Positions 4,728 to 61,421 of a stretch of DNA of 64,000 nt are shown piece after piece. Location: positions 5,543 to 69,542 of the forward strand of contig JAJZPF010000005.1 in NCBI GenBank assembly GCA_021811315.1, in the 5' to 3' direction. Position 1 is the first letter of the stretch. The number at the start of each line of letters is the position of its first letter. Made by a program: the position numbers and the translations under genes. The DNA comes from a bacterium. GTDB taxonomy: Bacteria > Elusimicrobiota > Elusimicrobia > Elusimicrobiales > UBA9959. The notes beneath the pieces are model-generated. The model made no database searches and was not told the origin of the DNA. It saw only the letters and a program-made list of their open reading frames with translations.

Positions 4728-5621
4728 TTAATCTTTGAGCGGGAGGGGCTTCAGCTCCGCCGCCCCGTAGCGCCGCAAATACGGCTTCATCAGCCCCACG
4801 CAGACTTCCCTGTCCCGGCAGCCGGAACAGGCGGGCGGATAGGCCCGGTCTTCGGGCGGAAGGCTCACTATGGCCAGCCTGCGCAGCGCCGGCAAAAGCA
4901 GGCAGCGGGGGAAATGGTAAAGGCGCGCCTCCCCGAAACCCGCCAGGGAGCTTTTGCAGGCATTGACCCGCTTCGCGGTGGCGGAAAGCCGCACTTCCAG
5001 TTTTTTGCGGTTTTTAACCCCGCTCCCCTCCGCCTCGTAATGCATCACCACCACGCGGTACCGCCTGCCGCGCATCAGCCGCTTTATAAAGCCAAGGGTC
5101 GCGCCGAGCCGCCGGTAATTAAGCCTGTGCAGTATCACCCTTATCTCGATCAAAGGCGCCGCCTGCAGGGCCAGCAGGTTTTTAAGGCCGAGCAGGGTTT
5201 CTTTAAAAGCGCCCTTTACCCCGGCCACCGCGTCATGCGCCGCCGCCGTAGGGCCGTGGATGGAAACCGCAAGCGTAAAAGGCGGCCTTGCCGCCGCGGC
5301 AAAAGCGGCGGCGAAATCCGGGTCCGAGAAGCGCCGGCCATTTGAAAGCAAAGTCAGTTCCTCGCCTTCCAGCCGCCGCCTGAAATAGTTTATAGCCTTC
5401 AGAAAATCCGGGTTCAGCGTGGGCTCGCCGCCGGTCAGGTTCCAGGCGCCGGCCGTGCGCGCGTTCTTCCTGTAAGCCCCGGCCCCGCGCAGGTACTTCT
5501 CCAGCCTGTAAGCCTGCTTGAGCAGGCCGTAATCGCCGGGCGTATTCAGGCTGAAGCCGGCCGTATTGGCGCACATCAGGCACTTGTTATTGCATTTGTT
5601 CCAGACGGGGATATCGGGCAT
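4728..5621 (-). CDS. HxsC-like radical SAM protein
   Basis: CNNKCLMC, LTGGEPT, LSNGR, HDAV, C-terminal FPRCL...CSGCRDREVCVG. Confidence 0.75.
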   Translation of the reverse strand: MPDIPVWNKCNNKCLMCANTAGFSLNTPGDYGLLKQAYRLEKYLRGAGAYRKNARTAGAWNLTGGEPTLNPDFLKAINYFRRRLEGEELTLLSNGRRFSDPDFAAAFAAAARPPFTLAVSIHGPTAAAHDAVAGVKGAFKETLLGLKNLLALQAAPLIEIRVILHRLNYRRLGATLGFIKRLMRGRRYRVVVMHYEAEGSGVKNRKKLEVRLSATAKRVNACKSSLAGFGEARLYHFPRCLLLPALRRLAIVSLPPEDRAYPPACSGCRDREVCVGLMKPYLRRYGAAELKPLPLKD

Positions 5622-6089
5622 TGCGGAAAATCTATCTATCTCTTTTCGCGCGCTTTATTACGGAAGGCCCCGGCTTGCGCGCGTCAGCCAGGAAGGCTTC
5701 GTCTCCGTCGGCCCTGGGCTGAAAAACATCCCGCGGCAGCCCGGGCCGGCAAAAAACAGGCAAAATCCAGGATCTTTCTTCATCGAGGCCGCCAATCAAT
5801 AATATAAAATTTGCCAGGGCCTTGTTCTGCCTGGCCTGAACCGGAACATCTCCCTGGCCGATTCTGTCGACAATTCCGACCTTCCCGGTTACTTCCCGGC
5901 TCCTCATACGATCTTGGTCCTTTCAGCGATTCTCATGCGGCCCGGACATAACCGCCCGAACTTTATATAATGGATTCTGTATTTAAACGCATTACCGGCC
6001 GGCGCCTCTTGGAAGCCGGGGGAGGCCCGTAAGTTGTAAATATCGCGGGGGATAGCGGAAATTCTATTAACGCCGCAGCCGTAAAAAAT

Positions 6090-7933: not shown

Positions 7934-8953
7934 CTAGAAGCTCCTTTTAGGGTACTGGAGCGCCGCCTCGAACAGCGGTTTCAGCCCGCTCCTGTCGATG
8001 TCGGCCTTGTTTTTCGAAGAGCTGTACGCGGCTTCTATCCCGTTCTTAAGGGTTATTATTTCCCCCACGTTCTCGTGCAGGCGCTTTACGGCGCTCTCGG
8101 CGTGAGAGAAGCAGATGCGGTCGAAGCCGAGGGCTTTGTACTTCCGCATGAACAGCGCCGCTTCCTTTAAATTTTCCCTGACCAGCGTCATATGCCCGTG
8201 GATCACCGTAGCGCTGTGAAACTCCTTCCTGTATTTCTTCAGTCTCCGGATATTTCCAAGCACCGTCTCCCATTTTGAGCCGACATTCACCCGCTCATGG
8301 GTTTCTTTGGTCGCCGCGTTGATCGAAATATAAATAAACAAAGAGTTCCTGACGATCTTTTGCGCCCATTCGTCGGTTATCAGCATGCCGTTGGATAAAA
8401 AAGAAACAGTCTTTCCCTGCGAGGCGGCATGGTCGAAGAATTTTTTCGCCGGCTCGATGAACAAAGGCTCTCCGCCTTCTATCGCTATATTCTGAAAAGG
8501 GCCGAGATCCAGGTTTTTCTTGAACCTCTCCAGGTCCAACGTCCGGCTCCCGACATGAGCCTGGGTGCACATCAGGCACCTGATATTGCAGGACTCCCCG
8601 AAACGCAGGTTGAGCTGTTTAAGGCCGCTATAGGCGATCTTCAGCGGCTTGGCGGCCGGCGGCGGCGGGATGGCCGCTTTGTTAAGGAGATGGCAGCGGG
8701 CGTAACATTTCAGGGCGCCGCTCAGGGACAACTTTCTCAGCGCCTGGACCGCCCTTGAATTGCAGATCTTCGATAGCGGGGTTTTATAAATATCGCCGAA
8801 AGGCACGGCTTCGGGGCAGACGCAGGCGTAGACCCGGCCTTCATGATCTATATGAATTTCTTCCCAGAGCCTGGGGCAGTAGGTTCGTGCGCGGATCTTG
8901 CGCGGCGGTATCGACATAAAGATAGACGCTTGTTTTCCTGTACCGGCCTTCAT
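7934..8953 (-). CDS. Radical SAM protein with N-terminal SPASM/twitch-like domain
   Basis: CPRLW..GRVYACVC..CYARC precedes CNIRCLMC and GGEP. Confidence 0.82.
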   Translation of the reverse strand: MKAGTGKQASIFMSIPPRKIRARTYCPRLWEEIHIDHEGRVYACVCPEAVPFGDIYKTPLSKICNSRAVQALRKLSLSGALKCYARCHLLNKAAIPPPPAAKPLKIAYSGLKQLNLRFGESCNIRCLMCTQAHVGSRTLDLERFKKNLDLGPFQNIAIEGGEPLFIEPAKKFFDHAASQGKTVSFLSNGMLITDEWAQKIVRNSLFIYISINAATKETHERVNVGSKWETVLGNIRRLKKYRKEFHSATVIHGHMTLVRENLKEAALFMRKYKALGFDRICFSHAESAVKRLHENVGEIITLKNGIEAAYSSSKNKADIDRSGLKPLFEAALQYPKRSF

Positions 8954-16663: not shown

Positions 16664-16891
16664 ATCGATTAACGTGTTAAATTTTAGCAAATATAGGATT
16701 CAGGAATCTGCAGGCAAAGCCGGCAAAAGCCGGCGCAGGGCGACTTAACCCGGTTCCGGCTCCCCCTTCAGGTTTCCGGCCGGGAAGTGAATTTATTTTA
16801 TTTCCCGCGCCCCATTTTCGCCCTGAGGCCTTCCGGTATTACAGTCCCGCGCCCGCCCTAATGCCGTTAATTTTTATTGTATTATTATATT

Positions 16892-43552: not shown

Positions 43553-43556
43553 TTAT

Positions 43557-47977: not shown

Positions 47978-48693
47978 AAATATTTTTCCTGCGCTGCGAC
48001 GACGTAACGAAACCCGATAAGGCTTTCCTGCGTATTTACGGACCGCTCAGGGCTGCCGGGCTGCCGGTTTCCTGCGCCGTTATCCCCGCCCGGGCCGGGC
48101 AGGCGCTGGCCGCCTTCTTCCGCGCCGAAACCGCCGCCGGCGCCCGCCTCGAAGCCTTGCAGCACGGCCTCAGCCACGCCGAACATTCCGGCAACAGGTA
48201 CCTCAAGCAGGAATTCGGCCCTTCGCGCTCTTATAAAGAGCAGCGGGCCGATATAGCCGCTGGAAAGAAGCTGATGAAAAAGCTGTTCGGGAAAATTTCA
48301 AAGCCGGTTTTTGTGCCGCCGTTCCACATTTACAATTCGGACACGCTTAAAGCCCTGGCAGCGCTCGGATTCAAGGCGGTCTCCGCCAGCCGGCGGCTGA
48401 AGGAGCCAATGCCGCGGGGCCTGGCTTTCCTGGGCACCAGGGTTACGGTAAACGAATATGACCTGGAACTAAAGCCCCGCCCGCTTTTTTTGAGCCGGTT
48501 GAAATCACGGACCCTGGCGGCCATAAAAGAGGGCGGCGCCCCCTCCGGCATCTATTTCCACCACGACGATATCAGGGGGAAGGACTTTGAAATTTTCTCG
48601 GGGTATATCTCTTTCCTGAAAGAGCTGGAAAACCGCGGGCTGGCCCGCTTTGTCCCGGCTTCCGAACTTATTAAAAAACCCTCTCGATCTTAA
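47974..48693 (+). CDS. Polysaccharide deacetylase-like (NodB/DUF2334-type) protein
   Basis: LRCDD, AVIP, QHGLSH, EFG, FVPPF, YFHH; ATGA overlap. Confidence 0.78.
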   Translation: MKIFFLRCDDVTKPDKAFLRIYGPLRAAGLPVSCAVIPARAGQALAAFFRAETAAGARLEALQHGLSHAEHSGNRYLKQEFGPSRSYKEQRADIAAGKKLMKKLFGKISKPVFVPPFHIYNSDTLKALAALGFKAVSASRRLKEPMPRGLAFLGTRVTVNEYDLELKPRPLFLSRLKSRTLAAIKEGGAPSGIYFHHDDIRGKDFEIFSGYISFLKELENRGLARFVPASELIKKPSRS

Positions 48694-49636: not shown

Positions 49637-50781
49637 AGGCCGCATATGATCCGCGCCGACTTTTGCGCGCCGCGGAACCAGGAGGGTTTTACGCGTTTCG
49701 AGATCCTGACCGGCTTCCCCAGCCGAACCCTTACCGCGGCAGCGATCTTCTCCGGGGTAAGGTCCGCCGGCAGGAGCAGAGCCGCGCCGGCCAGGTCCCT
49801 CATCAGCCAGGCGCGGGCCAGCTGGTCGGAATGCTCGCGCATTTTTGAGCCGCAGTAGGGGGCCAGCACCATTTTTTTCCGCAAAGCCAGCATTTCGTAA
49901 ACGGAGCCGCCCGCCGTAGAAAGGCAAACGGCGGCCCCGGACATGAGGTCCTGCAGGCCGGCCGAGCTCCCTATTACCTCGGCCTTTCCTCCGCCGGAAG
50001 CCGCCAGCCGCCGAAAATAGGCCAGCCGCCGGGGCGGCGTGGCCGGCCCCGCGACAAGCCTGAAAGGGACGTCGGAAATGGAAGCCGCCCCGATAGCGGC
50101 CTCAAAAAAAAGGTCGGAAGTGGAACCGCCGCCGCGCGTGACCAGCACGAAATCGTTTGTTTTAACCCGCTTAACTACGGGCTTGCCGGGGTAAAGGTAG
50201 CCGGTAAAGACGATCTTGCGGCGCAGTTCCCGGAACACTGAAAGAAAGGCGGGCGCGGTTATGCGCCTCTCCAGGCTTACGGCTTTTGCCATGTATGCGA
50301 GGTCCGCGCCTTCAGGGCTGTGGACCAGGAGCTTATCGTAGCGGGCGCAGACCCCGAGCAGCTCTTCAAGGCCGCGCTCCGGGGCCGTAAAATAGGGCAT
50401 AGGGACGCTTGAAATCTTCTTCGCGCCGCAGGCCGAAGCCGCCTCGAGGAGAGGGAGCGCTTCCGGAAGGCACTCGGCCCTGCCGAAAGGAAAGAACTCG
50501 GTCACCAGCGCCGAAGGCCGGAACCGCCGCAGCGTAAGGGCGAGGCGGCGGCCCGAAGCCGCGGAGGGCGCCGCCGGGAGCCGCACTACCCGCCCGTATT
50601 TGCTGAAAAGGTTATACGGATAAATATACGGGCCCCGCAGAAAGATCAAACTGCGGCTGCCGCGGGATCCTTTGATCTCCGCCAGCAGCCGCAGCAAGTG
50701 TACCGCGTGACCGATATCCCCGGAGGGACTATGGAGGTAAAAAACAAGTCTTTCCCGCGCCGCTGATTCAATAGGAACCAT
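49633..50781 (-). CDS. GT-B fold glycosyltransferase (GT28/MurG C-terminal-like)
   Basis: GDIGH, EFFPFGR, FTGY, VTRGGG, STAGG..YE, DQ..RA. Confidence 0.75.
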   Translation of the reverse strand: MVPIESAARERLVFYLHSPSGDIGHAVHLLRLLAEIKGSRGSRSLIFLRGPYIYPYNLFSKYGRVVRLPAAPSAASGRRLALTLRRFRPSALVTEFFPFGRAECLPEALPLLEAASACGAKKISSVPMPYFTAPERGLEELLGVCARYDKLLVHSPEGADLAYMAKAVSLERRITAPAFLSVFRELRRKIVFTGYLYPGKPVVKRVKTNDFVLVTRGGGSTSDLFFEAAIGAASISDVPFRLVAGPATPPRRLAYFRRLAASGGGKAEVIGSSAGLQDLMSGAAVCLSTAGGSVYEMLALRKKMVLAPYCGSKMREHSDQLARAWLMRDLAGAALLLPADLTPEKIAAAVRVRLGKPVRISKRVKPSWFRGAQKSARIICGL

Positions 50782-51094
50782 GGCTGCCGTGGCTGCCGTG
50801 GGAACCGTGGCTGCCGTGGGAACCGTGGCTGCCGTGAGAACCGTGGCTGCCGTGGGAGGCGTGCGAACCGTGGCTGCCGTGCGAACCGTGGCTGCCGTGG
50901 CTCTGGTGGCTTACGTGGGAGCTGCTGGTGAAGTAATTAGAGTGAACCTGCGCCGCGGCCTGCTCGACCATTACCGTACCGAGTATGCCGAGGGCCAGGC
51001 CGGTCTTCACGATATCCGAGTCCAGCATCTTGCCTTCCTCGCTGCTGAGGAACATGCGGATGTTCTTTTTAAGTTTCGAGGTTTTCTTTTTCAT
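50768..51094 (-). CDS. hxsA: His-Xaa-Ser repeat precursor peptide (HxsA-like), 108 aa
   Basis: Basic leader, FLSSEEG, hydrophobic segment, then 16 tandem HxS (HVS, HQS, 4xHGS, HAS, 9xHGS) and terminal Tyr; two genes downstream of hxsB. Confidence 0.88.
   Translation of the reverse strand: MKKKTSKLKKNIRMFLSSEEGKMLDSDIVKTGLALGILGTVMVEQAAAQVHSNYFTSSSHVSHQSHGSHGSHGSHGSHASHGSHGSHGSHGSHGSHGSHGSHGSHGSY
50774..50917 (-). repeat. Coding 9-bp tandem repeat (partial 18-bp higher order) encoding HxS units
   Basis: Plus strand alternates gctgccgtg and (g/c/a)gaaccgtg units. Confidence 0.95.
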
Positions 51095-51172
51095 AAGTTT
51101 ACCGTCCCGCTTTCCCGATAACAGCGCCAAGGAAGAACCGGATCGTTCCGTTCGACACGGAACGGAACCTGC

Positions 51173-52306
51173 CTATTCGCCCTTCTTGCCCATCAGCTTC
51201 CGCACCTTTTCATTGACCTGCTTGGTGGTGGTTTCTTCCTGCTTGCGGAGCCGCTCCTCCTCCGCTTTCTTCCTCGCCGCCTCCGCCAGTGATTCCTTCA
51301 CTTCTTCAGGCGTGACCCCGAAAAAACCGCCGCTTTTTTTCATTTGCTCTTTGCGGTAGGCGCAATATTTCTGGGACATGTCGGCAAGGATGGGCGCGCA
51401 GGGCCCGGGGCTGTTCTGCAGCAGCGCGGCGCAGTTCGGCTTGTAAGCGTCCGGGCACTTGGCCGGGTTGCCCGTGAACAAGCCTGTCCACAGGTCATGG
51501 TCGGCCAGGCAGGCGGCGTCGGAGCCGCAGACGTCCGCGGTGATAGCCATCAGCCTTTCAGCCGGAGGATAAGCCTGCGGCATTTTTTTCTTGATATAGG
51601 AGAAAGCGCTGTCAAAGCCCTTGGAGACCGCCGTGCAGAATTCAGCGGGGTTGGCGAACAGGGGGGGCTGGCCCTCGCTGGGCTGCTCGCTGACAAAGTC
51701 AAGGCAGTTCCGCTGGTCTTTGGCTTTGCCGGCGGCATAGGCCTTGAAGAGGAAAAGCACGGTCTTCTTCCTGCATAGGTCCATCGGGGTCATAAAGGCG
51801 CCGATCTTGGAATCTACTTTCGGATTTTCGAACGAGGGGACGCCGAACTTGGCCACGTCCTTTACATTTTCCCCGGGAAGCTCGCTGCAGATCGAAGAGT
51901 CCTGGCGCGAAGCGGCCGTGCAGGCGTAATAATCCCAGATATGGTTATAGATATCCTGGGTCTTGATCGGCTCGATGGCCAGGTTGCGGCCGGTGAAGTA
52001 GCCCCAGGTCTTGCCGTGGTTCTCCATTATCTCCTTGGGGGACCCGCCCTCGCAGGCGCCCTTGAGGTCCAGCGCCGCCGCGGGCAGCGCCAGTTGCTCA
52101 AAGCTGCCGGTAGCCTGCGCCGAGGTAGGCATGGGGCTGGGAGGTATATAATCGGTAGAGCCGGGAGGCAGCGCCACTCCCTGCTGCTCGGCCTGGGGCT
52201 GCGTGGCCGGCTGGGGCATACCGACCTGGTTTTTAGCCGCAAAATATTTCAGCCCCACCAAGGCCGCCGCCAAGATGACAACAACGCCTATGATTATTTT
52301 TTTCAT
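51173..52306 (-). CDS. Membrane-anchored/exported Cys-rich hypothetical protein
   Basis: N-terminal TM, Pro/Gln linker, 12 Cys, charged helical C-terminus; lies between hxsB and hxsA. Confidence 0.75.
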   Translation of the reverse strand: MKKIIIGVVVILAAALVGLKYFAAKNQVGMPQPATQPQAEQQGVALPPGSTDYIPPSPMPTSAQATGSFEQLALPAAALDLKGACEGGSPKEIMENHGKTWGYFTGRNLAIEPIKTQDIYNHIWDYYACTAASRQDSSICSELPGENVKDVAKFGVPSFENPKVDSKIGAFMTPMDLCRKKTVLFLFKAYAAGKAKDQRNCLDFVSEQPSEGQPPLFANPAEFCTAVSKGFDSAFSYIKKKMPQAYPPAERLMAITADVCGSDAACLADHDLWTGLFTGNPAKCPDAYKPNCAALLQNSPGPCAPILADMSQKYCAYRKEQMKKSGGFFGVTPEEVKESLAEAARKKAEEERLRKQEETTTKQVNEKVRKLMGKKGE

Positions 52307-52446
52307 AAATTTAAACGCTACCCCGGACCCTCCCTTGAACAGCCGGACACCCTAACATATGTTTTACCACAAAAAACGACAATTTTCAAGCCCAAAAGAT
52401 ATTAAGGCCTGACGGGAAACACCGGGGAAACTATTGCCGACACGCT

Positions 52447-53853
52447 TTAACTGCGGGCTATCCACTTCTCGAATATATCGAAGACGGGTTTCTCCGACAA
52501 CTTCTCAAAGATATAGTCAAAAACACCGATGAGCGTCCGGCAGCGCCCGTTCGAAGGCATGGAACCCCAGAAGCCGCCCTGAGCCGCCTGGTTATAGGCC
52601 GGGCAGGCGCCGCAGAACGGCTTGTAGGCGCAGCGCGCGCACACGGGCTGCAGGTCAAGGCTTGAGGAGATGGCGCAGGCCTTGACCGGCTCGGAGCTTA
52701 TAACCCCGGCATAGGCGTCCTTCAAAACGCTTCCAAGGCGGAAGGAGCGGTCCCCGCCGCGGGCGAGCATGCGGCCTTCGTCACAGGTATATACCCCCCC
52801 GTCGCAGTCGTAGGCCAGCTGGCCCAGGCCGGCCCCGCAGGGGCAGCGCAGGTCGACATACCTGTTATCCTGGGTGCCGATGATCTTTTTTACGGCCAGG
52901 AAAGCGGTTTTTTCTTTTATGGGCACGCCGCGCCGGTTAAGCTCCAGCACGCGGTCCAGCCCCTCCCGGTAAAATCCCAGGAATTCTTCCGGGGTATAGC
53001 CTATCTCGTCCCAGCGCTTCAGCGCGTCGCCGATGGGAGAAAGCGGCTTGAGGAAAACGTAGGGCAGCTTAAGGCGGGCGTACTCGTCAACTATTTCCCG
53101 GGCCCGCCCGAGCGAGGCCCTCGTAACCGTCAGCAGCGCGCTGGGCCCGCCGGGGGGCTCGGCCCCGCGGCGCTCCTGGAAATATTTTATCCACTTCGCC
53201 GCGACGGCGTGGGAATCGCCGCCGGAGAATTTACGGTTCGCGTTGTGCAGGTCCGCGGGCCCGTCCAGGGAGGTGCAGAGCGAGATATCGTTCGCGACTA
53301 TGAAATCGGCCTTCTTTTCATCCATCAGGCTGAAATTGGAAACCAGCGCCAGGGCCAGCCCCTTGCCGGTCTTTTCCGCTTTTTTGCGCGCGTAAATAGA
53401 GGCTTCCTTCAGCGCGGCCCAGTTCACCAGCGGCTCGCCGCCCTGGAACTCCAGAGTGAGCCCGCTCACGGGCGCGCTGAAAGCGAAATCCACGGCGCGG
53501 CGGGCCGTGGCCGGGCTCATGTTCCTACCGGCGCCGGAGCCGGCCTGGCAATAGACGCAGCTATGATTGCATTTCTCGGTCAGCACCATTATATGCAGGC
53601 CCGGGCCAAGGCGCAGATATTCGTTGGAATCCCTCCAGTCGGTAAAAATAGAGTCGAAATCAAGGCGCGAGCGCAGAAGCCCTGCCCTCCGCAGCGCTTC
53701 AAAAGCCGGCCCGCTCTTCAGTTTGCCCGCGGCGAAGAGCTTGAACTCGGCGGGCTTAAGCAAAGCCCAGCCGCCCAAATCGCCGGTAACCAGCACCCCC
53801 GCCTTAAGGCGGCGCCAGTTAAAATAAGCGGGCAGGTCCAGCTGTTTTTTCAT
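52447..53853 (-). CDS. hxsB: His-Xaa-Ser system radical SAM/SPASM maturase HxsB (start reassigned to MKKQLD)
   Basis: LHIMVLTEKCNHSCVYCQA, EFQGGEPL, TSLDGP..LHN.NR, VDLRCPCGAG.GQLAY..DG.VYTCDEGRM, C..C.YKPFCG.CP. Confidence 0.88.
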   Translation of the reverse strand: MKKQLDLPAYFNWRRLKAGVLVTGDLGGWALLKPAEFKLFAAGKLKSGPAFEALRRAGLLRSRLDFDSIFTDWRDSNEYLRLGPGLHIMVLTEKCNHSCVYCQAGSGAGRNMSPATARRAVDFAFSAPVSGLTLEFQGGEPLVNWAALKEASIYARKKAEKTGKGLALALVSNFSLMDEKKADFIVANDISLCTSLDGPADLHNANRKFSGGDSHAVAAKWIKYFQERRGAEPPGGPSALLTVTRASLGRAREIVDEYARLKLPYVFLKPLSPIGDALKRWDEIGYTPEEFLGFYREGLDRVLELNRRGVPIKEKTAFLAVKKIIGTQDNRYVDLRCPCGAGLGQLAYDCDGGVYTCDEGRMLARGGDRSFRLGSVLKDAYAGVISSEPVKACAISSSLDLQPVCARCAYKPFCGACPAYNQAAQGGFWGSMPSNGRCRTLIGVFDYIFEKLSEKPVFDIFEKWIARS

Positions 53854-53905
53854 TGCGCTCCTGATATCATATAAAAATAGCGCCATACGGATAAACGTGA
53901 AACCT

Positions 53906-54040
53906 TGGAGGTTGCCTGGCTGACCGGGTAAGCAAAAGCCCCTCGGAGGCCGAGGCTTGCGTAAGCGCCGAGGCCGAGAGCGGCAGGCGCGAGCACGGTG
54001 TGCGAGACGCCGATTTTGCGTCCCGGCCAGCCAGGCAACC
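53906..54040 (-). repeat. Structured ~135-nt element, copy 1 (REP/MITE-like or ncRNA)
   Basis: 19-bp terminal inverted repeat 53910-53928/54022-54040 (one G-T pair on the minus strand), core shared with 63868-63932, followed by TCCA on the minus strand. Confidence 0.8.
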
Positions 54041-54057
54041 GAACCCATCACTTCTTC

Positions 54058-54087
54058 TTGACAATACCGAGGCGAAAGACATTTAAT
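54058..54087 (+). promoter_or_regulatory. Putative sigma70 promoter of ygeW
   Basis: TTGACA-N18-TTTAAT, then GGAG RBS before ATG 54125. Confidence 0.5.
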
Positions 54088-54124
54088 TGTTGTAGCAACG
54101 ATAGCAAACACCTGGAGATAAAAA

Positions 54125-55315
54125 ATGCCCATCAATATCGAAAGATCTTTAGCTGAACTGGAAAAGCTCGGCGCCGGCATGCGCGGCAAGGATTTCCTGC
54201 TCACCTGGGAAAAATCCGACAAAGAACTCAAATCCGTTTTCATCATCGCCGAGCTCCTCAAAGAGCTCCACGCCAAGAACGTCCCCCTCGACATGTTCAA
54301 GACCGGCCTCGCCGTCTCCAACTTCCGCGACAACTCCACCCGCACCCGCTTCTCCTTCGCCTCCGCCTGCAACCTGCTCGGCCTCGCCGTCCAGGACCTC
54401 GACGAGGGCAAAAGCCAGATAGCCCACGGCGAGACCGTGCGCGAAACCGCCAACATGATCTCCTTTTTGACCGAGGCCGTCGGCATCCGCGACGACATGT
54501 TCATCGGCAAAGGCCACACCTATATGCAGGAAGTCGCCGAGGCCCTCGACGACGGTTTCAGGAACGGCGTGCTGAACCAGCGCCCCGCCGTGGTCAACCT
54601 CCAGTGCGACCTCGACCACCCCACCCAATCCATGTCCGACATGCTCTTCATAAAGAACCATTTCGGCGGCTTCGAAAAACTCAAGGGCAAGAAAATAGCC
54701 ATGACCTGGGCCTACTCCCCCAGCTACGGCAAACCCCTCTCCGTGCCGCAGGGCGTCATCTGCCTGATGACCCGCTACGGCATGAACGTCGAGCTCGCCC
54801 ACCCCGAGGGCTACGACCTGCTCCCCGAGACCATCAAGGTCGCCGGCGACAACGCCAAAAAGTCCGGCGGCTCCTTCAAAGTCTCGAACAGCATGGAGAG
54901 CGCTTTCAAGGACGCCGACATCGTCTACCCGAAGAGCTGGGCTCCCTACAAAGTGATGGAGCGCCGCACGCAGCTCCTCGAGAAGAACGACCACCCCGGC
55001 CTCAATGACCTCGAGAAAGAATGCCTGGCGCAGAACGCTAAACACACGGATTGGGAATGCGACGAGAAGAAGATGAAGCTCACCAAGGGCGGCGAAGGCC
55101 TCTACCTGCACTGCCTGCCCGCCGACATCACGGACGTGTCCTGCAAACAGGGCGAGGTAAGCGCCAAGGTCTTCGAGAAATACCGCATCGGGACCTACAA
55201 AGAAGCCGGCTACAAGCCCTTCATCATCGCGGCCATGATAGCCGCCTGCACAAAAAAGAACCCCGCGAAAGTAATACAGGCGCTTTACAAGTCCGGGCAG
55301 AAACGCGTCCTGTAG
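54125..55315 (+). CDS. ygeW: Knotted carbamoyltransferase YgeW
   Basis: DFLLTW, FRDNSTRTR, HGETVRET, NLQCDLDHPTQ, WAYSPSYGKPLSVPQG, YLHCLPAD. Confidence 0.93.
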   Translation: MPINIERSLAELEKLGAGMRGKDFLLTWEKSDKELKSVFIIAELLKELHAKNVPLDMFKTGLAVSNFRDNSTRTRFSFASACNLLGLAVQDLDEGKSQIAHGETVRETANMISFLTEAVGIRDDMFIGKGHTYMQEVAEALDDGFRNGVLNQRPAVVNLQCDLDHPTQSMSDMLFIKNHFGGFEKLKGKKIAMTWAYSPSYGKPLSVPQGVICLMTRYGMNVELAHPEGYDLLPETIKVAGDNAKKSGGSFKVSNSMESAFKDADIVYPKSWAPYKVMERRTQLLEKNDHPGLNDLEKECLAQNAKHTDWECDEKKMKLTKGGEGLYLHCLPADITDVSCKQGEVSAKVFEKYRIGTYKEAGYKPFIIAAMIAACTKKNPAKVIQALYKSGQKRVL

Positions 55316-55483: not shown

Positions 55484-57574
55484 ATGAGACATTTTCTTCT
55501 GATGATCCCGGCGCTTTTTTCAGCGCTCCTTTGCCCGCCCCGCGCCCTTGCGGCCGGGCCGGACGCCGGGATGCGGGATTATTACTGCGACGACGTGAAA
55601 AAGCCTTTCTTCGCCGAGGCTCCGGGAGAAAAAGGCGGGTTCGTGCTCCGGAGGACGGGCGCCCTGCCCGACGCTTTCATGATGCCCAAGCCGGCTGGAA
55701 CGAAGCGCGTGTTCGTAGTAGGAGAATCGGTAGCCGCGCTGCTCGGGCCGGGTACGGCGTTGTCCTCCGGGAGGATAAAAAAAGAGGGCTTGCTCAGGAA
55801 CATGCTCGGGAAAAGCGCCGCCGGAGACAACTCCGGGATAGAAATAATCAACTGCGGCATGGGCGGCTATGAAAGCTACAGGATCTACGGCGTGCTGGAA
55901 GAGGCGCTTAAATACAGCCCTGACCTGGTGGTGGTGCTCAGCGGCAACAACGACACGCAGGAAGAGTCCTGCCCCGGGCTCGAGTGCGAGCTGCGCCGGC
56001 GCAAGTTCCGCCTCTTCGAAAAATATTTCTCCCTAAGCGGCGCTCCCCGGGAGGCCGTTAAGAAAGCGTCGCTGAAAATGCATGAGGCCATGCTGCTGAA
56101 AATGGGCGCGGCCGCGAAGAAAGCCGCCGTCCCCATAGTGTTCTGCACCCTGCCCGCGGCCGTCAGGGATATGCCGCCGCGCCAGCCCGCGCCCCTCGAG
56201 AACAAGTTTTTCGCGGCCGGCTACAGGCTTTTTTACGCGAAAAAGACCGCCGGGGCGCTTGAGAAATTCAAGCTCGCGCTCGCCGCCGGCCCGCGGGAGC
56301 CTTTTTCCAGCTTTTACGCGGCCAAAGCCCTGGAGCAGCTGGGCCGTGAAAAAGAGGCCGCCGCCTATTACGCCAACGCGCTTAATTTCGACCCGGCAAT
56401 GTCGCGGGCCGGCCGGGAGCGCAACGACCTGATACGCCGCGCGGCCTCCGTGAAAGGCGCCTGCGTGGCCGACCTGGAAAAGCTTTTCCAGGGGATTTCC
56501 CCGGGCGGGCTTCCCGGGTTCGAGGACTTTACCGACGGGATGCACTGGAACTTCCCCCACGACAAGGAAGTCTGGGAGGAGATCTTCCGCTCCGCCGGCC
56601 GCTGCGGGATAAAGGGCTTTGAAAAATTCACCGCCGGGCCCCCCTCCCAATGGGCAGAAACCTCCAGCGGGACCGCCCTTAAACGGCTCGGCTACGCCTT
56701 CTCCTGGCTGGACGAAAGGGACTTCAACGAAGCGAGCCTGGCGGAACTGGCGCGCATTAAAAAGGAGCAGCCGGAACTGCTGGAAAAGGCGGGCTCAGCC
56801 CCGGCGCAGCTTGAAAAGCTGCTCATCAACAACCTTTGGTCCGCCGACAGGATCAAGCGTTTAAAGGATATCTACCCCTTCTTCCTGGCGCACCTGGCCG
56901 AAACGGAAAGGCGCGCTGGCAATTACGCCAAGGCGCTTTCACTGAGCGATAAAGCCCTGGCGCTGAAGCCGGGACACCCGCTGCTGAGGCTGGGCAGGGT
57001 CCAGGTCGTAGCCGATATGGGCGGCAAAGCGGAGGACGAATTTATGGCCCTTTCCCGGGAGCGCTCGCTCAACGGCAAGGCCGCGGCGCTCGCGGCCGCC
57101 TACGGCTTCACGAACGCCGCGGCCCCGGCGCCCGGCCGCGGGGCTTCTTCCGGCCCGGAGCCGGCCTCCAAGGAGAACGTCGAGTTATCCAAAAGATTAT
57201 CCGATCAGGCGGTCGACAAGATCTTCGCCAAGGACTTCAAGGCCGCCGAAGAACTTTCCGGCAAGGCCGTGGAGAAGAACCCTTTCAACTCCGAGGCCCT
57301 GATGAGCCTGTGTTATCTGCGCCGGAAGGACGGGCGTACGCTGCTGGCGCTCGAGGCCTGCAAAAGAGCCTCCGCCTCCGTTTATCAGGACCCGGCCAAC
57401 CAGATCCCTTCGCTGGAAATCCTGTCCTGCGACGCCGCTTTCGAAAGCTACAAGATGCTCAATGAGCTCGGCCGCGGACCCGAGGCGGCCGCCGTGCTCG
57501 AGCAATGCGTAAAAAGGGCCCCCGCCTCCTGGCCGGGACTGGACGCGGCCAAAGCCGCTTTAAAAGCGCGCTGA
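55484..57574 (+). CDS. Exported SGNH/GDSL-like hydrolase with TPR repeats
   Basis: Signal peptide; VVGES, NCGMGGY, SGNND, DGMH blocks; TPR-like helices. Confidence 0.72.
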   Translation: MRHFLLMIPALFSALLCPPRALAAGPDAGMRDYYCDDVKKPFFAEAPGEKGGFVLRRTGALPDAFMMPKPAGTKRVFVVGESVAALLGPGTALSSGRIKKEGLLRNMLGKSAAGDNSGIEIINCGMGGYESYRIYGVLEEALKYSPDLVVVLSGNNDTQEESCPGLECELRRRKFRLFEKYFSLSGAPREAVKKASLKMHEAMLLKMGAAAKKAAVPIVFCTLPAAVRDMPPRQPAPLENKFFAAGYRLFYAKKTAGALEKFKLALAAGPREPFSSFYAAKALEQLGREKEAAAYYANALNFDPAMSRAGRERNDLIRRAASVKGACVADLEKLFQGISPGGLPGFEDFTDGMHWNFPHDKEVWEEIFRSAGRCGIKGFEKFTAGPPSQWAETSSGTALKRLGYAFSWLDERDFNEASLAELARIKKEQPELLEKAGSAPAQLEKLLINNLWSADRIKRLKDIYPFFLAHLAETERRAGNYAKALSLSDKALALKPGHPLLRLGRVQVVADMGGKAEDEFMALSRERSLNGKAAALAAAYGFTNAAAPAPGRGASSGPEPASKENVELSKRLSDQAVDKIFAKDFKAAEELSGKAVEKNPFNSEALMSLCYLRRKDGRTLLALEACKRASASVYQDPANQIPSLEILSCDAAFESYKMLNELGRGPEAAAVLEQCVKRAPASWPGLDAAKAALKAR

Positions 57575-57613
57575 AGCCCGGCCCCCGCGGTTCAATTGTT
57601 ATATAATTACCCA

Positions 57614-60139
57614 ATGGAAAGCATAGTCTTTTTCGGAAAAGGCGGCATAGGCAAGAGCACCATAGCCGCCAATATCTCCGTGCTGTTCGCCGCGAAGGGC
57701 AGGAAGGTCCTTCACGTCGGCTGCGACCCGAAGATGGATTCCACGCTTTCGCTCATGGGGCGCCGCATACGCCCTTTCAACGACCAGGGAGGCTCCGACG
57801 AGGAAGCCCTGCGCCGGTCGCTCCACCGCTCGATCAAAGGCATAGACTGCATCGAGGCCGGCGGCCCCCAGGCCGGGGTCGGCTGCGCCGGCGCCGGCAT
57901 AGGCGCGATGCTCGACGCGATCAAGGACTCCGCGCTGATAGAGAAAGAAGGCTACGACACGGTGGTCTTCGACGTCCTCGGCGACGTGGTCTGCGGCGGT
58001 TTCGCCGCGCCGCTGCGCCGCGGTTTCGCGAGCAAAGCCATCCTCGTCGTCTCCGAGGAGCTCCTCTCCCTTTACGCCGCGAACAATCTTATCTCGATGG
58101 TGAACAATTACGCCAGGAACGGGGTGTTCCTGGCAGGCCTGGCCGTCAACGCCAAGGACCAGGCCGCCGTCAGGCTGGCCCACGATTTCGCGCGCGCCGC
58201 GAATACGCGGGTACTGGGCGTGATACCGAGGGACCCGGCGGTCACAAGGGCGGAAAAAGCCCGCAAGCCGGTGGTCGCGCTCGAGCCGCGCAGCGAAGCG
58301 GCCAAAAGCCTGGCGCGCCTCGCCGCGGAGATAGCCGCGGCCGGCATCCCCTCCTCGCCGCCGCGGATGCTGGGCCCGGCCGAGTTCGAGGCTTTCATGG
58401 ACGACAGGCCGGTCAAGCCGGAAGGGAAGAGCGCCGGGCCCGCCGCCAGCCCCGCCGTCAAAAAAAACAAAGTCGCCTCTTCGGCCCTGCTCGAGAGGTC
58501 CGGCTTCAGCATGACCGGCGTGGCCGGGGGACAGGTGGTCTGCTCCTGGAAAGGCGGCGGCACGACTTTCAGGCTTTTCATCGCCCCGGAGTCCGACTCC
58601 AGGCCGGGCATGTCCGCCATAGGCGACTGGGCTTTCTGCTTCCTGCCGGGAGAGGAGCCCCCCTCCGACATTTCCCGCGAAGGCTTCCACGCCGCGCTGA
58701 AAGAGATCTCCACCCTGCGCTTCGACGATTTCATCTCCGCCTTCAGCGGCAAGCTGGATTTTTACGAGAACGTGGATTCCTTCGGAAAAGGCTCCTCTCA
58801 CCCGCTCATGCCGGAAGGAGACAAGCCGGAGGAGCCCTACATAGGCTTCGGGCAGTGGCAGCGCTTTCTCTTTTCCGACAGTTCCGGCATCTGCGTGCCT
58901 CCGGGCTCGGTGATGGTGGAGCACGGCGATAACGAGTGCCGCTTCAGCAGCTGCTCCCAGACCCCGCTGAGCACTTTCCAGAAAATAGCGGGGCTCGCCA
59001 ACGATTCCACCCCCTCCCTCGCGCCGCTCCTCCCCAAGGAGGATCACATGATAGTCAATACCGATTTCCTTTACGAGGACGCCGTCAAAGGCGACGAGAA
59101 AAAGATAGCCGGCACCCTGGCGGCGGCGGCCGCGCGTACCGGCCCGGGCGGGCTGATCGAGTTTTACAGCGGCTGCGCCCCCCTCATCCTGGCCAGCGAC
59201 GTCGCCTCGTTCAGCGATAAGGTCGCCCGCGACCTGGGCGTGGAAGTTCTGCGGGAGAACTTCAACAGCTTTTACTCGCAAACCCCGGAGAAGGTGCGGG
59301 CCCGCTCCGCTTTCGTGGCGCGCAGGCTGGCCGCGCTCGGGCGCGTGAAGCCGGCGCAGGACGTGAACCTGATAAATTTCGGCAGCTCGCGCGAGCCGCT
59401 TACCGCCCTGCTGGCCGCCAAGGGCCTGGCCGTGAAGGACTGGGACACCGAGTTCTACAAAGATATCGCTTCCGCGCGGCTGCAGGTCCTGTCTTCCGCC
59501 GACCCGGTGCTGACCGGGGCTTTCGACAAGCTAGGGATAAAATGGACGGCCCCGGGCGCGCCCTACGGCTTCGCGGCCACGAAGGCCTGGCTGCGCGCGC
59601 TGTTCGCCGCCCTCGGCAGGAAAAGCCCCCCCGAAGGCTTCGGCCCCTCCAGGAAGGAGTCGGCCGCCCACGCCGCGGCGGCAAAAAAGCTTTCCCGCTT
59701 CGCCGCCGGCTTCGTGGCCTCGCCCGGGGAATTCGGCATGCTGGAAGGGACCTGGGCCGTCTCCGGAGTTCCGCTTATTTCTTTTCTTTCCGAGTCCGGC
59801 CTGGCCCTCAGGCTTTTCGTCCACGCCGCGGGTCCCGAAATAAAAGCCCTCGCCAGGACCGAAGCCGCCGCCCTCGCCGCCAAAACGGGGACGAAGCCGC
59901 GGCTGGCTTTCTTCGACAGCCCCGGCGCGCTTTTAAAGACGCTGGCCGCCGACCGCGCCCTCCGCCTGGTCTATTCGGACATCCCCCTCGACCCGCGGCT
60001 GTCCGCGGCAGGGAAAAACTCTTTTTCGGTGGCGGTCTGCGAGCCCGGCTACGAGGGCGCCCTGGAAACCCTGCGCAGGCTGGCGCAGCTTTGCGAATGG
60101 GATTTCAATGAAAGATATTACTTCACAAAAAGCGTTTGA
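57614..60139 (+). CDS. Nitrogenase-like Fe protein (NifH/BchL/CfbC family) fused to a nitrogenase component-1-like domain
   Basis: GKGGIGKST, GCDPK, EAGGP.AGVGCAG, DVLGDVVCGGF; C-half HGDNEC, SGC.P, PYGFAATKAWL, GYEGA. Confidence 0.88.
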   Translation: MESIVFFGKGGIGKSTIAANISVLFAAKGRKVLHVGCDPKMDSTLSLMGRRIRPFNDQGGSDEEALRRSLHRSIKGIDCIEAGGPQAGVGCAGAGIGAMLDAIKDSALIEKEGYDTVVFDVLGDVVCGGFAAPLRRGFASKAILVVSEELLSLYAANNLISMVNNYARNGVFLAGLAVNAKDQAAVRLAHDFARAANTRVLGVIPRDPAVTRAEKARKPVVALEPRSEAAKSLARLAAEIAAAGIPSSPPRMLGPAEFEAFMDDRPVKPEGKSAGPAASPAVKKNKVASSALLERSGFSMTGVAGGQVVCSWKGGGTTFRLFIAPESDSRPGMSAIGDWAFCFLPGEEPPSDISREGFHAALKEISTLRFDDFISAFSGKLDFYENVDSFGKGSSHPLMPEGDKPEEPYIGFGQWQRFLFSDSSGICVPPGSVMVEHGDNECRFSSCSQTPLSTFQKIAGLANDSTPSLAPLLPKEDHMIVNTDFLYEDAVKGDEKKIAGTLAAAAARTGPGGLIEFYSGCAPLILASDVASFSDKVARDLGVEVLRENFNSFYSQTPEKVRARSAFVARRLAALGRVKPAQDVNLINFGSSREPLTALLAAKGLAVKDWDTEFYKDIASARLQVLSSADPVLTGAFDKLGIKWTAPGAPYGFAATKAWLRALFAALGRKSPPEGFGPSRKESAAHAAAAKKLSRFAAGFVASPGEFGMLEGTWAVSGVPLISFLSESGLALRLFVHAAGPEIKALARTEAAALAAKTGTKPRLAFFDSPGALLKTLAADRALRLVYSDIPLDPRLSAAGKNSFSVAVCEPGYEGALETLRRLAQLCEWDFNERYYFTKSV

Positions 60140-61421
60140 AAAAACCTACCAGCTTCCTTACCTGCTGGGCGTCTTCCTGAGCCTCAACGCCGTCAGCGAC
60201 GCCTGCCTCATGGTGGACGGCGCGAACTGCGTCATGGTCAAAGCCGACCTGATAGCCGGCAACCACGACCTCTTCTCCACTCTTTTATCCGAATCCGGCC
60301 GGCACCGCATCATCTGCACGATGTGGACGCCCGTAAATCCCCCCAAGAACCCGGAGAAAAAGCTCGGCGCGATGCTCAACAGCGTGGCAGGCTCCGGGCA
60401 GTTCGGCGCGGTGCTCCTGACCGGCCTCCCTTACTGCTGGCTGGCCGGGATGGACTATGACGGCGTAGCGCGGGCCGTCTCCTCCAAAGCGCCGGTGGCG
60501 GCCATACCGGCCAAGTCGATGGATTCGGACTGGCTGGAAGGCTATGACCTGACCCTGGAGGCGCTCGCCCGGGCCATACCGGAGAGGAAGCCCGGGAAAC
60601 GCGCCAAAAATAAAGTCGCGCTGGTCGGCTATATGTTCGACAGGAACGAAAGCGACCATGCGGCTAACTTGAAAGAACTTACCCGGCTGCTGAGAATTTC
60701 CGGGCTCGACGTAGTTTCTATCTGGCCTTCCGGCGGAACCGTCGCCGAGCTGGCGCGCGTGTCCGAAGCCTCCCTTATCGTTTCCCTGCCCTACGGCAGA
60801 AAAGCCGCCAAAACCCTGGCCCGTAAATACGGCTGCGAACTCCTCGAGACCGGCCTGCCTATGGGGCTGAAAGGGACCTCCTCCTGGCTGGCCGCGGTCC
60901 GCCGCGCGGCGGGCCTGCCGGGCGCCCTGCCCCGGGAGATCCTGGTGGAAGAGCGGGAAGCCGCCAGGACCATAGCCCCGGCGCTTCGCGCCCTCCTCCA
61001 CAAAAAGCTGATGTTCGCCGGGGACCCTTACCTTTATTCCGCTTTCGCTTCTTTCGCGGCCGAGCTGTGCGCGACCCTGCCGCTGGTCTTCCTGGACTCC
61101 TCCAGGCGCCCGCTTGGCGCCGGGGCGGCGGAGGGGAGCGTTCTCTTCGCGCCGTCCACCGAGGACGCCAAAGCCGCCAGGAAAGCCCTTTCACGCTATC
61201 AAGCGCCGAACCTTGCCGTCGTCAATTCTTTCGCGCTTACCGAAGGTTTCGCGGACGGGCTCCCTTTCGTGGAATTCGGCTTTCCGTCTTACGGGCACCA
61301 CTGCCTTCTGGACGAGCCCTATTTCGGTTTCAGCGGCGCCCGGGCCCTGGCTTCGCGCATGCTGAACTCGCTGCAGACAAGGAGCAAGGCCAGCTCCTCG
61401 GGAGCGGACCGCTCGGCGTAA
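60108..61421 (+). CDS. Nitrogenase component-1 family subunit (NifD/K, BchN/B, CfbD-like paralog)
   Basis: VDGANC, DWLEGY, ELTRLL..SGL, PMGLKGTSSWL, GFPSY, PYFGFSGA; 32-nt overlap with the upstream fusion gene. Confidence 0.85.
   Translation: MKDITSQKAFEKTYQLPYLLGVFLSLNAVSDACLMVDGANCVMVKADLIAGNHDLFSTLLSESGRHRIICTMWTPVNPPKNPEKKLGAMLNSVAGSGQFGAVLLTGLPYCWLAGMDYDGVARAVSSKAPVAAIPAKSMDSDWLEGYDLTLEALARAIPERKPGKRAKNKVALVGYMFDRNESDHAANLKELTRLLRISGLDVVSIWPSGGTVAELARVSEASLIVSLPYGRKAAKTLARKYGCELLETGLPMGLKGTSSWLAAVRRAAGLPGALPREILVEEREAARTIAPALRALLHKKLMFAGDPYLYSAFASFAAELCATLPLVFLDSSRRPLGAGAAEGSVLFAPSTEDAKAARKALSRYQAPNLAVVNSFALTEGFADGLPFVEFGFPSYGHHCLLDEPYFGFSGARALASRMLNSLQTRSKASSSGADRSA

Follow-up and report, generated by a model that had tools for sequence, protein, structure and literature searches.

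This study concerns a 64,000-nucleotide stretch of DNA from an Elusimicrobia genome, hereafter the window (positions 5543–69542 of contig C27; GenBank JAJZPF010000005.1), and the His-Xaa-Ser (HxS) peptide cassette of the HxsA4/HxsB type that it carries. An earlier note on this DNA had read about 57 kb of it as one supercluster in which 18 radical S-adenosylmethionine (SAM) enzymes and a nitrogenase-like reductase act on a single HxS peptide. Our results lead us to lean, with some reserve, toward a mosaic of modules rather than one fixed 57-kb pathway. The source assembly (labeled G000) is 2.67 Mb in 48 contigs and 63% complete. From the window, whose GC content is 60%, 51 open reading frames (ORFs) were picked by third-position GC; Pfam was run on 50 of the 51, and of ORFs shorter than 100 aa only 45329–45535 and the ORF of HxsA4 were included in the scans. 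All window proteins were compared by tblastn with ~1 Mb from contigs of 21 relatives, and tblastn thresholds stand in for family cut-offs in the comparisons with relatives and metagenomes. G-numbers denote relative Elusimicrobia genomes, L-numbers metagenome loci, f1 the family of the window, and f7 and f5 its sister families.

The cassette spans 13.7 kb (40171–53852), and its synteny is kept in two genera. HxsB, a SPASM radical SAM maturase encoded at 52447–53852 on the minus strand, scored 429.8 bits for TIGR03978 against a cut-off of 370 (431.2 bits in a genome scan), and it also weakly matched the PapB and nif11-type maturase models of NCBIfam. The listed ORF (52447–54519) is overlong; translation probably begins at the ATG at 53852, for a product of 468 aa. 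The HxsA4 precursor (~108 aa; 50768–51094, minus strand, within the listed ORF 50768–51130) scored 70.4 bits for NF038313 (cut-off 55) and 43 bits for the HxsA3 model, under its cut-off of 65. It has a basic N-terminus, a conserved leader, a short hydrophobic segment, 16 consecutive HxS units (50774–50917, minus strand), and the end GSY. This is the sole run of three or more HxS units in the whole assembly; the repeat is His-Gly-Ser, and His is its sole basic residue. Orthologs in five relatives likewise had a basic N-terminus and a strongly conserved leader, then a hydrophobic segment followed by an Ala-rich stretch, 9–22 units that were mostly His-Gly-Ser, and a tail ending in GSY or SRGGWC. 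No peptidoglycan-binding domain was found in HxsA4, the sole Pfam match being a collagen-like repeat artefact. PqqE/PqqA, MftC/MftA, and the ranthipeptides are peptide-derived cofactor or RiPP (ribosomally synthesized and post-translationally modified peptide) pathways with SPASM radical SAM maturases. The cassette resembles them in having a small precursor gene beside such a maturase, but differs in that its precursor is a long tandem repeat with a hydrophobic segment.

Three further genes lie in line with HxsB and HxsA4 on the minus strand. Between the two is the gene for a signal-anchored protein with 12 Cys (51173–52306), recognized by its sequence features; it had no Pfam match at E up to 1 and no NCBIfam match. 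Homologs hold the equivalent position in G214, G086, G122, G206, and G256, and a paralog follows a second HxsB elsewhere on the contig. The next gene (49633–50781), whose start overlaps the HxsA4 stop by 14 nt, encodes a glycosyltransferase-like protein for which Pfam gave no match and a sequence search of the PDB nothing meaningful. Of 30 Atlas matches, 27 belonged to the PF04101 set, and a Foldseek search with its AF2 model (pLDDT 82.4) led to UDP-glycosyltransferases and MurG (E 2.5e-12, TM ~0.6); by this structural prediction the product is a GT-B fold glycosyltransferase. The GT-B gene directly follows HxsA4 in G214, G086, and G122 as well, and GSY-ending HxsA4 is accompanied by it in G000, G214, and G086. 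The last gene of the transcription unit (48671–49927; PF04055, 63.4 bits) is a radical SAM gene with 78% identity to its counterpart in G214 and 50% in G086.

The remainder of the cassette is on the plus strand. It contains a 591-aa radical SAM gene resembling the B12 class (43557–45332; Pfam/NCBIfam), a 68-aa ORF (45329–45535), an HxsC4-like radical SAM gene (45532–46683; Pfam/NCBIfam), another radical SAM gene (46676–47977; PF04055), and a polysaccharide-deacetylase-like gene found by family search (47875–48693). These genes are syntenic in G214 at 83–88% and in G086 at 42–71% identity; the 68-aa ORF was 57% identical to G214 and had no match in G086. Ahead of them is a tandem duplicate of a two-gene unit (40171–43552), each copy with a U32-like gene and a gene for a Cys-containing partner. 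The copies are 73–79% identical in nucleotide sequence, and one such pair occupies the equivalent place in the G086 block. UbiU/UbiV-type U32 proteins are O2-independent hydroxylases. The units resemble them in being paired genes with one PF01136 match per pair and Cys-containing partners, but differ in that these matches are weak (29.1 and 28.6 bits, cut-off 22.4; ~60 of 233 profile positions) and the partners have no detectable U32 similarity. The two partners are paralogs of each other; they had no Pfam match at E up to 1, a PDB sequence search found nothing meaningful, and BLASTP detected no similarity between a partner and the U32-like protein.

Relatives of HxsC are numerous in this genome, with 12 matches to TIGR03977 in the assembly, the best of 148.6 bits and none above the cut-off of 267.9. 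The HxsC4 model gave at most 147.9 bits against a cut-off of 500. HxsD (TIGR03976) reached at best 25.9 bits against 50, beside the second HxsB, and nothing was found at the HxsB of the window. The second HxsB (480 bits; C27:78260–79657) belongs to a second Hxs-type cluster outside the window (C27:71094–84915), which contains two weak HxsD-like ORFs, the Cys-rich secreted paralog, a protein with six transmembrane (TM) segments, six HxsC-like radical SAM genes, and a radical SAM gene with two U32-like genes at C27:82222–84915. Whereas the corresponding cluster of G180, G220, and G156 includes an HxS-repeat gene (ending in SRGGWC), this one lacks any. Pfam, at E up to 1, matched neither of two genes lying upstream of this second HxsB. 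In the gap that follows this HxsB, a string of two HxS repeats was rejected as a wrong-frame artefact; the conserved frame encodes a small HxsD-like protein (18 bits). The radical-SAM-rich stretch thus continues past the window to about C27:84915, with seven further PF04055 matches and the second HxsB, and of the 56 PF04055 matches that a whole-genome profile scan gave for the assembly, 25 fell within a 72-kb part of contig C27.

Between the left flank and the cassette lies a hypervariable accessory block of 23 ORFs on mixed strands (6090–37191; Pfam/NCBIfam) with no ortholog-level match in G214. Eleven are radical SAM genes, five of them fused to a B12-binding domain, one in a split pair with it, and one fused to a methyltransferase. 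The block also encodes an AsnB-like protein, three flavoproteins, a sugar nucleotidyltransferase, a methyltransferase, and a family 2 glycosyltransferase (GT2) resembling polyprenyl-phosphate-sugar synthases, although its scores for the AglJ, PpgS, and dolichyl-phosphate hexose transferase models (46–59 bits) were well under the cut-offs. Of three polytopic membrane proteins, two are weakly PMT_2-like, with PF13231 scores of 25.3 bits (cut-off 26.1) at 28276–29781 and 17 bits at 32791–34632; membrane proteins of 171 and 519 aa had no Pfam match at E up to 1. To the left of the block, at the end of the insertion described below, is a small HxsC-like radical SAM gene (4728–5621, minus strand), 93% identical to its G214 counterpart and 48% to an HxsC-like gene of the second cluster. 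To its right are a B12-radical SAM gene and a flavin adenine dinucleotide (FAD) oxidoreductase gene (37261–40067, minus strand; PF02310, PF04055, and PF01593), 85–89% identical to G214.

The gene inventory of the earlier note held up well. The CxxxCxxC motif occurs in 18 of the 51 chosen ORFs, all 18 match PF04055 above its cut-off, and the whole-genome scan likewise put 18 matches inside the window. The note's count of eight to nine B12-type genes agrees with our finding of seven fusions to PF02310 (genes starting at 8976, 12761, 16877, 25376, 26791, 30767, and 37261), one split pair in which a stand-alone B12 protein (20662–21357) lies beside a radical SAM gene (19889–20836), and a ninth candidate, the 591-aa gene, which B12-radical-SAM NCBIfam models match over its radical SAM part only. 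HxsB, the peptide of 16 repeats, and the NifH/component-1 pair were likewise recovered, and Pfam and NCBIfam searches confirmed the AsnB-like gene, four amine-oxidase/CrtI-like flavoproteins (Pfam), and the methyl- and glycosyltransferases, among them a class I methyltransferase, the radical SAM-methyltransferase fusion, the GT2, and the sugar nucleotidyltransferase. No nonribosomal peptide synthetase (NRPS), polyketide synthase (PKS), acyl carrier protein (ACP), terpene synthase, or chelatase family was present among the 50 ORFs scanned with Pfam, as had been stated. Two labels need narrowing: the gene at 4728–5621 is a relative of HxsC and not an equivalog (147.8 bits for TIGR03977 against 267.9), and the so-called U32 pairs consist of two weak PF01136 matches whose partners lack U32 similarity.

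Local duplications at 69–81% nucleotide identity involve a B12-radical SAM gene, a CrtI-like flavoprotein gene, and the U32-like pair (16877–19887 and 23817–28233; 19889–21357 and 30767–32626; 40171–41830 and 41632–43552). These duplications are recent, and one of the duplicates is the split B12/radical SAM pair, its paralog being a fused gene. The GC content falls to 0.52–0.54 at 28001–30000 and 32001–36000, compared with about 0.60 elsewhere in the window; this span holds a PMT_2-like gene, a gene for a membrane protein with 11 TM segments, a methyltransferase gene, and part of the gene for the 519-aa membrane protein. These genes may have been acquired recently. The radical SAM ORF at 7934–8953 (minus strand) has an unusual domain order, a SPASM-like Cys-rich match (residues 26–83) preceding the radical SAM core (118–254), and no close NCBIfam model.

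The nitrogenase-like genes form a cassette at 55484–62483 on the plus strand. It begins with a secreted protein (55484–57574) that has a signal-like N-terminus and weak tetratricopeptide repeat (TPR) and GDSL Pfam matches; this gene also adjoins the nitrogenase-like genes in G214, G180, and L077. An 847-aa protein follows (NifHD; 57596–60139) in which a NifH-like ATPase (PF00142, 220.8 bits) is fused to a NifD/component-1-like domain (PF00148, 41 bits). A GKGGIGKS-type P-loop, C97, and C133 were invariant in 9/9 fusion homologs, as were C448 and C527 of the D-like domain. The full-length fusion occurs in seven other genomes of the window's family, and its closest named homologs (82–93% identity) were all metagenome-assembled genomes of Elusimicrobia or Elusimicrobiales. 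The third gene (60108–61421) encodes a 437-aa NifK/BchN-like component-1 partner (PF00148, 130.7 bits; BchN, 63.9 bits) whose C41 is conserved in 35 of 36 homologs; few Cys are conserved in the D/K-like partners, which appear to lack a complete set of P-cluster and FeMo-co ligands. The last gene (61449–62483; PF02424, 157 bits) encodes an ApbE-family flavin transferase seen, among the relatives compared, only in G214. The neighbor seen most constantly next to the fusion is a unit of one divergently transcribed radical SAM gene and two U32-like genes, present in L072, L073, L077 (twice, once per reductase copy), L085, L089, G180, and G086; in the present genome this trio is the one at C27:82222–84915, outside the window. 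In family f7 (G292:C30, G269:C98, and G238:C107), open frames of 1179–1433 aa span the NifH-like match, which suggests that the reductase fusions of f7 are larger than the NifH-NifD fusion of the window; the 1433-aa frame of G292 also contains a separate NifD-like match.

Comparison with relatives demonstrated that the stretch is two insertions into a conserved catabolic operon with the gene order threonine-synthase-like, small protein, carbamate-kinase-like, poly-gamma-glutamate (PGA)-hydrolase-like, ygeW, ygeY, and SufS-like. Because the PGA-hydrolase-like gene abuts ygeW in G206, G180, and G220, and ygeW abuts ygeY in the same-genus genomes G206 and G122, both of which lack the nitrogenase-like cassette, we conclude that insertion A extends from 4728 to ~53900 and insertion B from 55484 to 62483. 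The nitrogenase-like cassette is therefore a separate indel between ygeW and ygeY, and ygeW, within the supposed 57-kb unit, is a gene of the flank.

A chimeric join or other assembly artefact, which the earlier note had named as a danger to its reading, is unlikely, because three contigs made by an independent assembler from the probable source run tiled window positions 22001–42000 with no differences and an even depth of 44–45, interrupted only at two paralog repeats; because three runs from other studies contained pieces of 99–100% identity throughout this interval, one spanning 36980–37457; and because G214, a different species of the genus, is syntenic with the region at both of its ends. 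The window contained no tRNA in a tRNA search and no Rfam family at the gathering score, and there was no integrase or transposase among its ORFs scanned with Pfam. Two RNA runs of the possible source study contained next to none of the window's sequence words.

Within the genus, the parts of the locus behaved very differently. The flanks were 73–98% identical to G214, and the parts of insertion A that were kept comprised the left-end HxsC-like gene, 37261–40067, and 43557–53852 (73–96%, apart from the 68-aa ORF). None of the 23 ORFs at 6090–37191 had an ortholog-level match in G214; 14 matched at 28–55% and nine not at all, and the four U32-region ORFs matched at just 28–32%. The equivalent insertion of G214 has 19 CxxxCxxC ORFs (by motif count alone) and no orthologs of 6090–37191, so the accessory architecture is kept while the enzymes differ. 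The order of the cassette at 40171–53852, in contrast, is kept in a different genus, G086, at 27–75% identity, and partly in G122; the G086-conserved block comprises the U32-like genes, the 591-aa radical SAM gene, two radical SAM genes, the deacetylase, a radical SAM gene, GT-B, HxsA4, the Cys-rich protein, and HxsB. Six genes of the variable block (those for the sugar nucleotidyltransferase, the GT2, and a flavoprotein, both genes of the split radical SAM pair, and a B12-radical SAM gene) recur at 56–84% identity as a compact block beside HxsA4/HxsB in G206 and G256, neither of which has a nitrogenase-like gene.

The distribution of these genes was determined by running each query over one 301-genome sample of the phylum. 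HxsB was above cut-off in all 22 genomes of f1, in 20 of 26 of f7, in three of four of f5, and in three genomes elsewhere; HxsA4 was found in 21/22, 21/26, and 3/4 genomes of these families. The nitrogenase-like query (E up to 1e-30) matched in 8/22 genomes of f1 (seven with full-length fusions), 14/26 of f7, and 1/4 of f5, with 12 more distant NifH matches elsewhere. Thus 14 of the 22 f1 genomes have HxsB without a nitrogenase-like gene. Across the three families, HxsB was present in 22 of the 23 genomes with a nitrogenase-like gene and in 23 of the 29 without; presence or absence is therefore uninformative, and only physical distance tells. Outside the window's family, only four of the 14 f7 genomes have reductase and HxsB within 20 kb, and no HxsB ortholog or HxS run was found on seven nitrogenase-like contigs (20–60 kb each) from f7 and f5. 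A metagenome scan recovered 29 loci with a fusion-length match, many of them short; 18 of them had a flank of 5 kb or more to one side, and among these an HxsB-like gene (42–55% identity) was present in four and an HxS run of 13–27 units in three.

Several observations weigh against treating the modules as independent. In eight of the nine window-family genomes that hold both genes (the source genome included), the reductase and HxsB are 1.5–14.8 kb apart, the distance being 3.8 kb in the window; in the ninth they are on different contigs. In G086, G220, and G267 the arrangement is operon-like. G086 has, on one strand, NifHD, NifK, two small genes, HxsB, the Cys-rich protein, HxsA4, and GT-B, and the run continues contiguously with radical SAM genes, a U32 pair, and B12-radical SAM genes; G220 has a similar arrangement on the opposite strand, and in G267, a member of f7, HxsB, HxsA4, and NifH are consecutive within 2.7 kb. 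B12-radical SAM genes lie no more than ~25 kb from HxsA4 in four of the five family genera examined. The linkage of reductase and HxsB (within 15 kb in eight of nine family genomes, within 20 kb in four of 14 f7 genomes, and in four of 18 metagenome loci) is too frequent for chance, and a single pathway across several modules is therefore possible. Moreover, the check by independent contigs reached window positions 22001–42000 only, not the left junction or the 6–22 kb interval, the source genome is only 63% complete, and the relatives are kin rather than independent samples. The co-occurrence of the reductase with Hxs genes, which the earlier note proposed as a check, is seen in the close spacing in eight of nine family genomes, but not on the seven sister-family contigs or in most of the metagenome loci. 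Functional coupling of some modules around the Hxs genes is plausible because the reductase cassette, the U32-like genes, and the B12-radical SAM/sugar modules gather non-randomly around them in several genera; for the reductase and the Hxs genes in particular, we regard such coupling as a possibility, although one we would not presume.

Nevertheless, a mosaic remains the reading that we somewhat favor, with the HxsA4/HxsB cassette as its best-supported unit and everything else facultative. From the observed gene identities, synteny, distributions, and linkage we infer how such a system might work, including its chemical steps, export, and the modules that act on the peptide. HxsB and several HxsC-like radical SAM enzymes would modify HxsA4 in the cytoplasm. 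The peptide would probably be glycosylated, on Ser, by the GT-B enzyme, with the deacetylase encoded nearby, and would then be exported or membrane-anchored, by analogy with E. coli HxsA. In this reading, accessory modules gather round this core and are shuffled, duplicated, lost, and replaced between species: B12-radical SAM enzymes with flavoproteins, a glycosylation set for sugar activation, polyprenyl-phosphate-sugar synthesis, and PMT-like transfer, the U32-like pairs, and the putative Group-VI-type reductase cassette.

The mosaic has to be weighed against the proposal of the earlier note, in which the HxS peptide would pass from one enzyme of the 57 kb to the next (all or most of them, the reductase and the 18 radical SAM enzymes included) and emerge as one heavily methylated, reduced, hydroxylated, and glycosylated RiPP. 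Of the genes found, HxsA4 is indeed alone in resembling a ribosomal precursor, the 50 scanned ORFs yielded no other scaffold family, the nitrogenase-like genes and HxsB are repeatedly close, and G086 has its contiguous run from NifHD to the B12-radical SAM genes. However, the HxsA4 tails of G000 and G214 differ by very few residues, yet the enzymes over 31 kb are non-orthologous; for a repeat of three residues, eight to nine different B12-radical SAM enzymes is a large number; the strand changes at least a dozen times along the stretch; Hxs occurs without reductase in 14/22 family genomes, and reductase without Hxs on 7/7 sister-family contigs. The 23 ORFs without G214 orthologs, the indel nature of the reductase cassette, and the membership of ygeW in another operon all speak against one conserved 57-kb unit. 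The argument that the peptide must be the substrate as the only scaffold is weak, because the sugar nucleotidyltransferase, GT2, and PMT_2-like proteins point to a glycan, and because primary metabolites need no scaffold gene. What survives of the proposal is a real block of peptide and maturase genes, syntenic in two genera; that all of the enzymes serve a single heavily tailored peptide is unproven and, in our estimate, improbable. We attach similarly little weight to another idea, in which (His-Gly-Ser)n would be a multi-copy core peptide whose imidazole units HxsB, the HxsC-like enzymes, the U32-like proteins, and the ATP-dependent reductase together convert into a peptide-derived redox cofactor, metallophore, or envelope polymer.

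A tetrapyrrole role for the reductase is the published alternative. Loci of Group VI nitrogenase-like genes (NflHDK) with many radical SAM genes were described in groundwater Elusimicrobia, with a tetrapyrrole role proposed for them and with hits also in Myxococcota and Gracilibacteria (Meheust et al. 2020, 10.1101/765248), and a 2026 review gives their function as unknown and repeats the tetrapyrrole guess, which is based on gene context (PMC13474568, section 7). Applied to the window, the reductase, the BchE-like and AhbD/NirJ-like radical SAM enzymes, and flavoproteins resembling protoporphyrinogen oxidase (PPOX) or CrtI would tailor a tetrapyrrole-type cofactor, and the Hxs cassette would be an unrelated neighbor. 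The window's reductase shares with Group VI the phylum, the NifH-like P-loop with equivalents of Cys97 and Cys132, the absence of NifB (TIGR01290, E 1e-10; 0/5 genomes), divergent NifD/K-like partners with few conserved Cys, and many nearby radical SAM genes, several with a B12 domain; it differs in the fusion of NifH to a NifD-like domain and in the proximity of the locus to HxsB. The Group-VI-type label used here is provisional, with indirect support from the closest named homologs of the fusion, all of which are from Elusimicrobia. In the main text of 10.1101/765248, as far as it was available, there is no mention of a peptide, SPASM, or Hxs genes, and the gene maps of its Figure S6 may include genes identified here as HxsB.

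The best named NCBIfam matches in the window do point toward tetrapyrrole enzymes, all below threshold: CfbC 217.8 bits (cut-off 402), BchL 168.5 (345), BchN 63.9 (420), BchE 218.6 and 155.8, and AhbD 146.4, 126.7, and 107.4. Dark-operative protochlorophyllide reductase (DPOR; BchLNB) and CfbCD are ATP-dependent reducers of tetrapyrrole double bonds. They provide the best named matches for both subunits of the reductase and have the same architecture of a two-component ATPase and a catalytic scaffold, but the window's scores are far below the family cut-offs, and none of the 50 ORFs scanned encodes a chelatase. HemB and HemC are present in this genome and in G214. HemB is missing, however, from seven of the nine reductase-bearing family genomes (G270, G054, G086, G114, G156, G180, and G220), which are 92–100% complete; HemC, tested in five genomes, was missing from all three that lack HemB; and the HemB-positive family genomes G206, G226, and G287 have no reductase. 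Because HemB is absent from 7/9 reductase-bearing genomes, a de novo tetrapyrrole pathway in the window's family is unlikely, and the published guess, which we consider doubtful for this locus, is weakened, although scavenging stays conceivable. Cells of this family must obtain corrinoids for their B12-radical SAM enzymes.

The statement of the earlier note that the product of HxS systems is uncharacterized is out of date, and the newer work suggests another explanation, that the Hxs cassettes are an antiphage defense and the variable block a defense or variable island, so that the clustering reflects island biology. According to that report, the E. coli HXS system (HxsA-D) keeps phage DNA from entering the cell; HxsB, HxsC, and HxsD mature HxsA, which gains +8 Da in its last repeat, loses its N-terminus, is exported, and acts in the periplasm; and HXS is found in 27.2% of Klebsiella genomes, with 99.7% of systems in Pseudomonadota (PMC13128918, section 10 for the distribution). 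The Elusimicrobia cassette is like the canonical system in its HxsB equivalog above cut-off, its tandem-HxS precursor, and its small HxsC-related radical SAM genes, and the N-terminal region of HxsA4, with a leader and a hydrophobic segment, appears compatible with processing and export. Gene content is also swapped within the genus between conserved flanks, as expected for an island. On the other hand, the canonical system is a compact four-gene D-B-C-A unit with a peptidoglycan-binding domain in an HxsA of five repeats (PMC13128918), whereas neither this gene arrangement nor this domain was found here; the window order is HxsB, Cys-rich protein, HxsA4, GT-B, and radical SAM gene, the peptide has 16 repeats (9–22 in relatives), and HxsC and HxsD remain under their cut-offs. 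The Elusimicrobia cassette is far larger, with its GT-B, deacetylase, Cys-rich secreted protein, and U32-like genes. The His-Gly-Ser repeat has no basic residue besides His, and the window showed neither a tRNA nor, among the ORFs scanned, an integrase or transposase. In three families HxsB and HxsA4 are near-universal, with apparently vertical inheritance, unlike the patchy canonical defense genes. A defense function is accordingly the explanation to which we give very little credence.

The genes of the flanking operon were identified as follows. On the minus strand at the left are a threonine-synthase-like pyridoxal phosphate (PLP) enzyme (1114–2352; NF006050, 313.7 bits, cut-off 303), a carbamate-kinase-like gene (2823–3923; arcC, 252 bits, under cut-off), a PGA-hydrolase-family gene (3920–4669; PF05908, 148.9 bits), and, within 1114–4669, a gene for a 151-aa protein. 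To the right are ygeW, which encodes a knotted carbamoyltransferase (54125–55315, plus strand; NF005538, 679.1 bits, cut-off 453), and ygeY, which encodes an M20 hydrolase (62543–63733, minus strand; TIGR03526, 564.6 bits, cut-off 321.5). The set of ygeW, ygeY, carbamate-kinase-like, threonine-synthase-like, and SufS-like genes (the last at C27:69688–70938) lies beside Hxs clusters in at least three genera, and L074 has the order NifHD, NifK, ygeY, ygeW, HxsB. A reductase cassette is found between ygeW and ygeY in genera g1 and g5; a functional reason and an insertion hot spot are both conceivable. Upstream of both ygeW (53909–54041, plus strand) and ygeY (~63800–63935, minus strand) is a structured element of ~130 nt with a shared core of ~70 nt, in which the arms of the outer helix are fully different between the copies yet complementary in each. 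The core recurs near ygeY in G214 and G206. The element matched no Rfam family, and the ygeW leader, when scanned by E-value, yielded nothing beyond a miRNA match attributable to chance; it is a candidate riboswitch or leader for these two catabolic genes. The nitrogenase-like cassette is downstream of ygeW on the same strand.

Group VI loci with radical SAM genes (10.1101/765248), HXS as an antiphage system (PMC13128918), and HxsA4 as an NCBIfam model were already known. No paper was found that links Group VI nitrogenase-like genes with Hxs or mentions HxsA4, the supplements of Meheust et al. lying outside this coverage. What is new is that one Elusimicrobia family repeatedly has the reductase beside a His-Xaa-Ser maturation system, sometimes in the same apparent operon, and that most reductase-bearing genomes of that family lack HemB. 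The comparisons define a minimal gene set of HxsA4, HxsB, the cassette radical SAM enzymes, and GT-B, with or without NifHD/NifK and the radical SAM and U32 trio. If HxsA4 were in fact a multi-copy core peptide and the reductase one of the enzymes converting it, Group VI would be the first nitrogenase-like reductase with a ribosomal peptide as its substrate, in place of a tetrapyrrole or small sulfur compound, and species-specific tailoring would be the role of the variable modules (B12-radical SAM, flavoprotein, and sugar). The Hxs system, so far a compact antiphage unit of Pseudomonadota, has a much larger, near-universal form in another phylum, one whose peptide is probably glycosylated.

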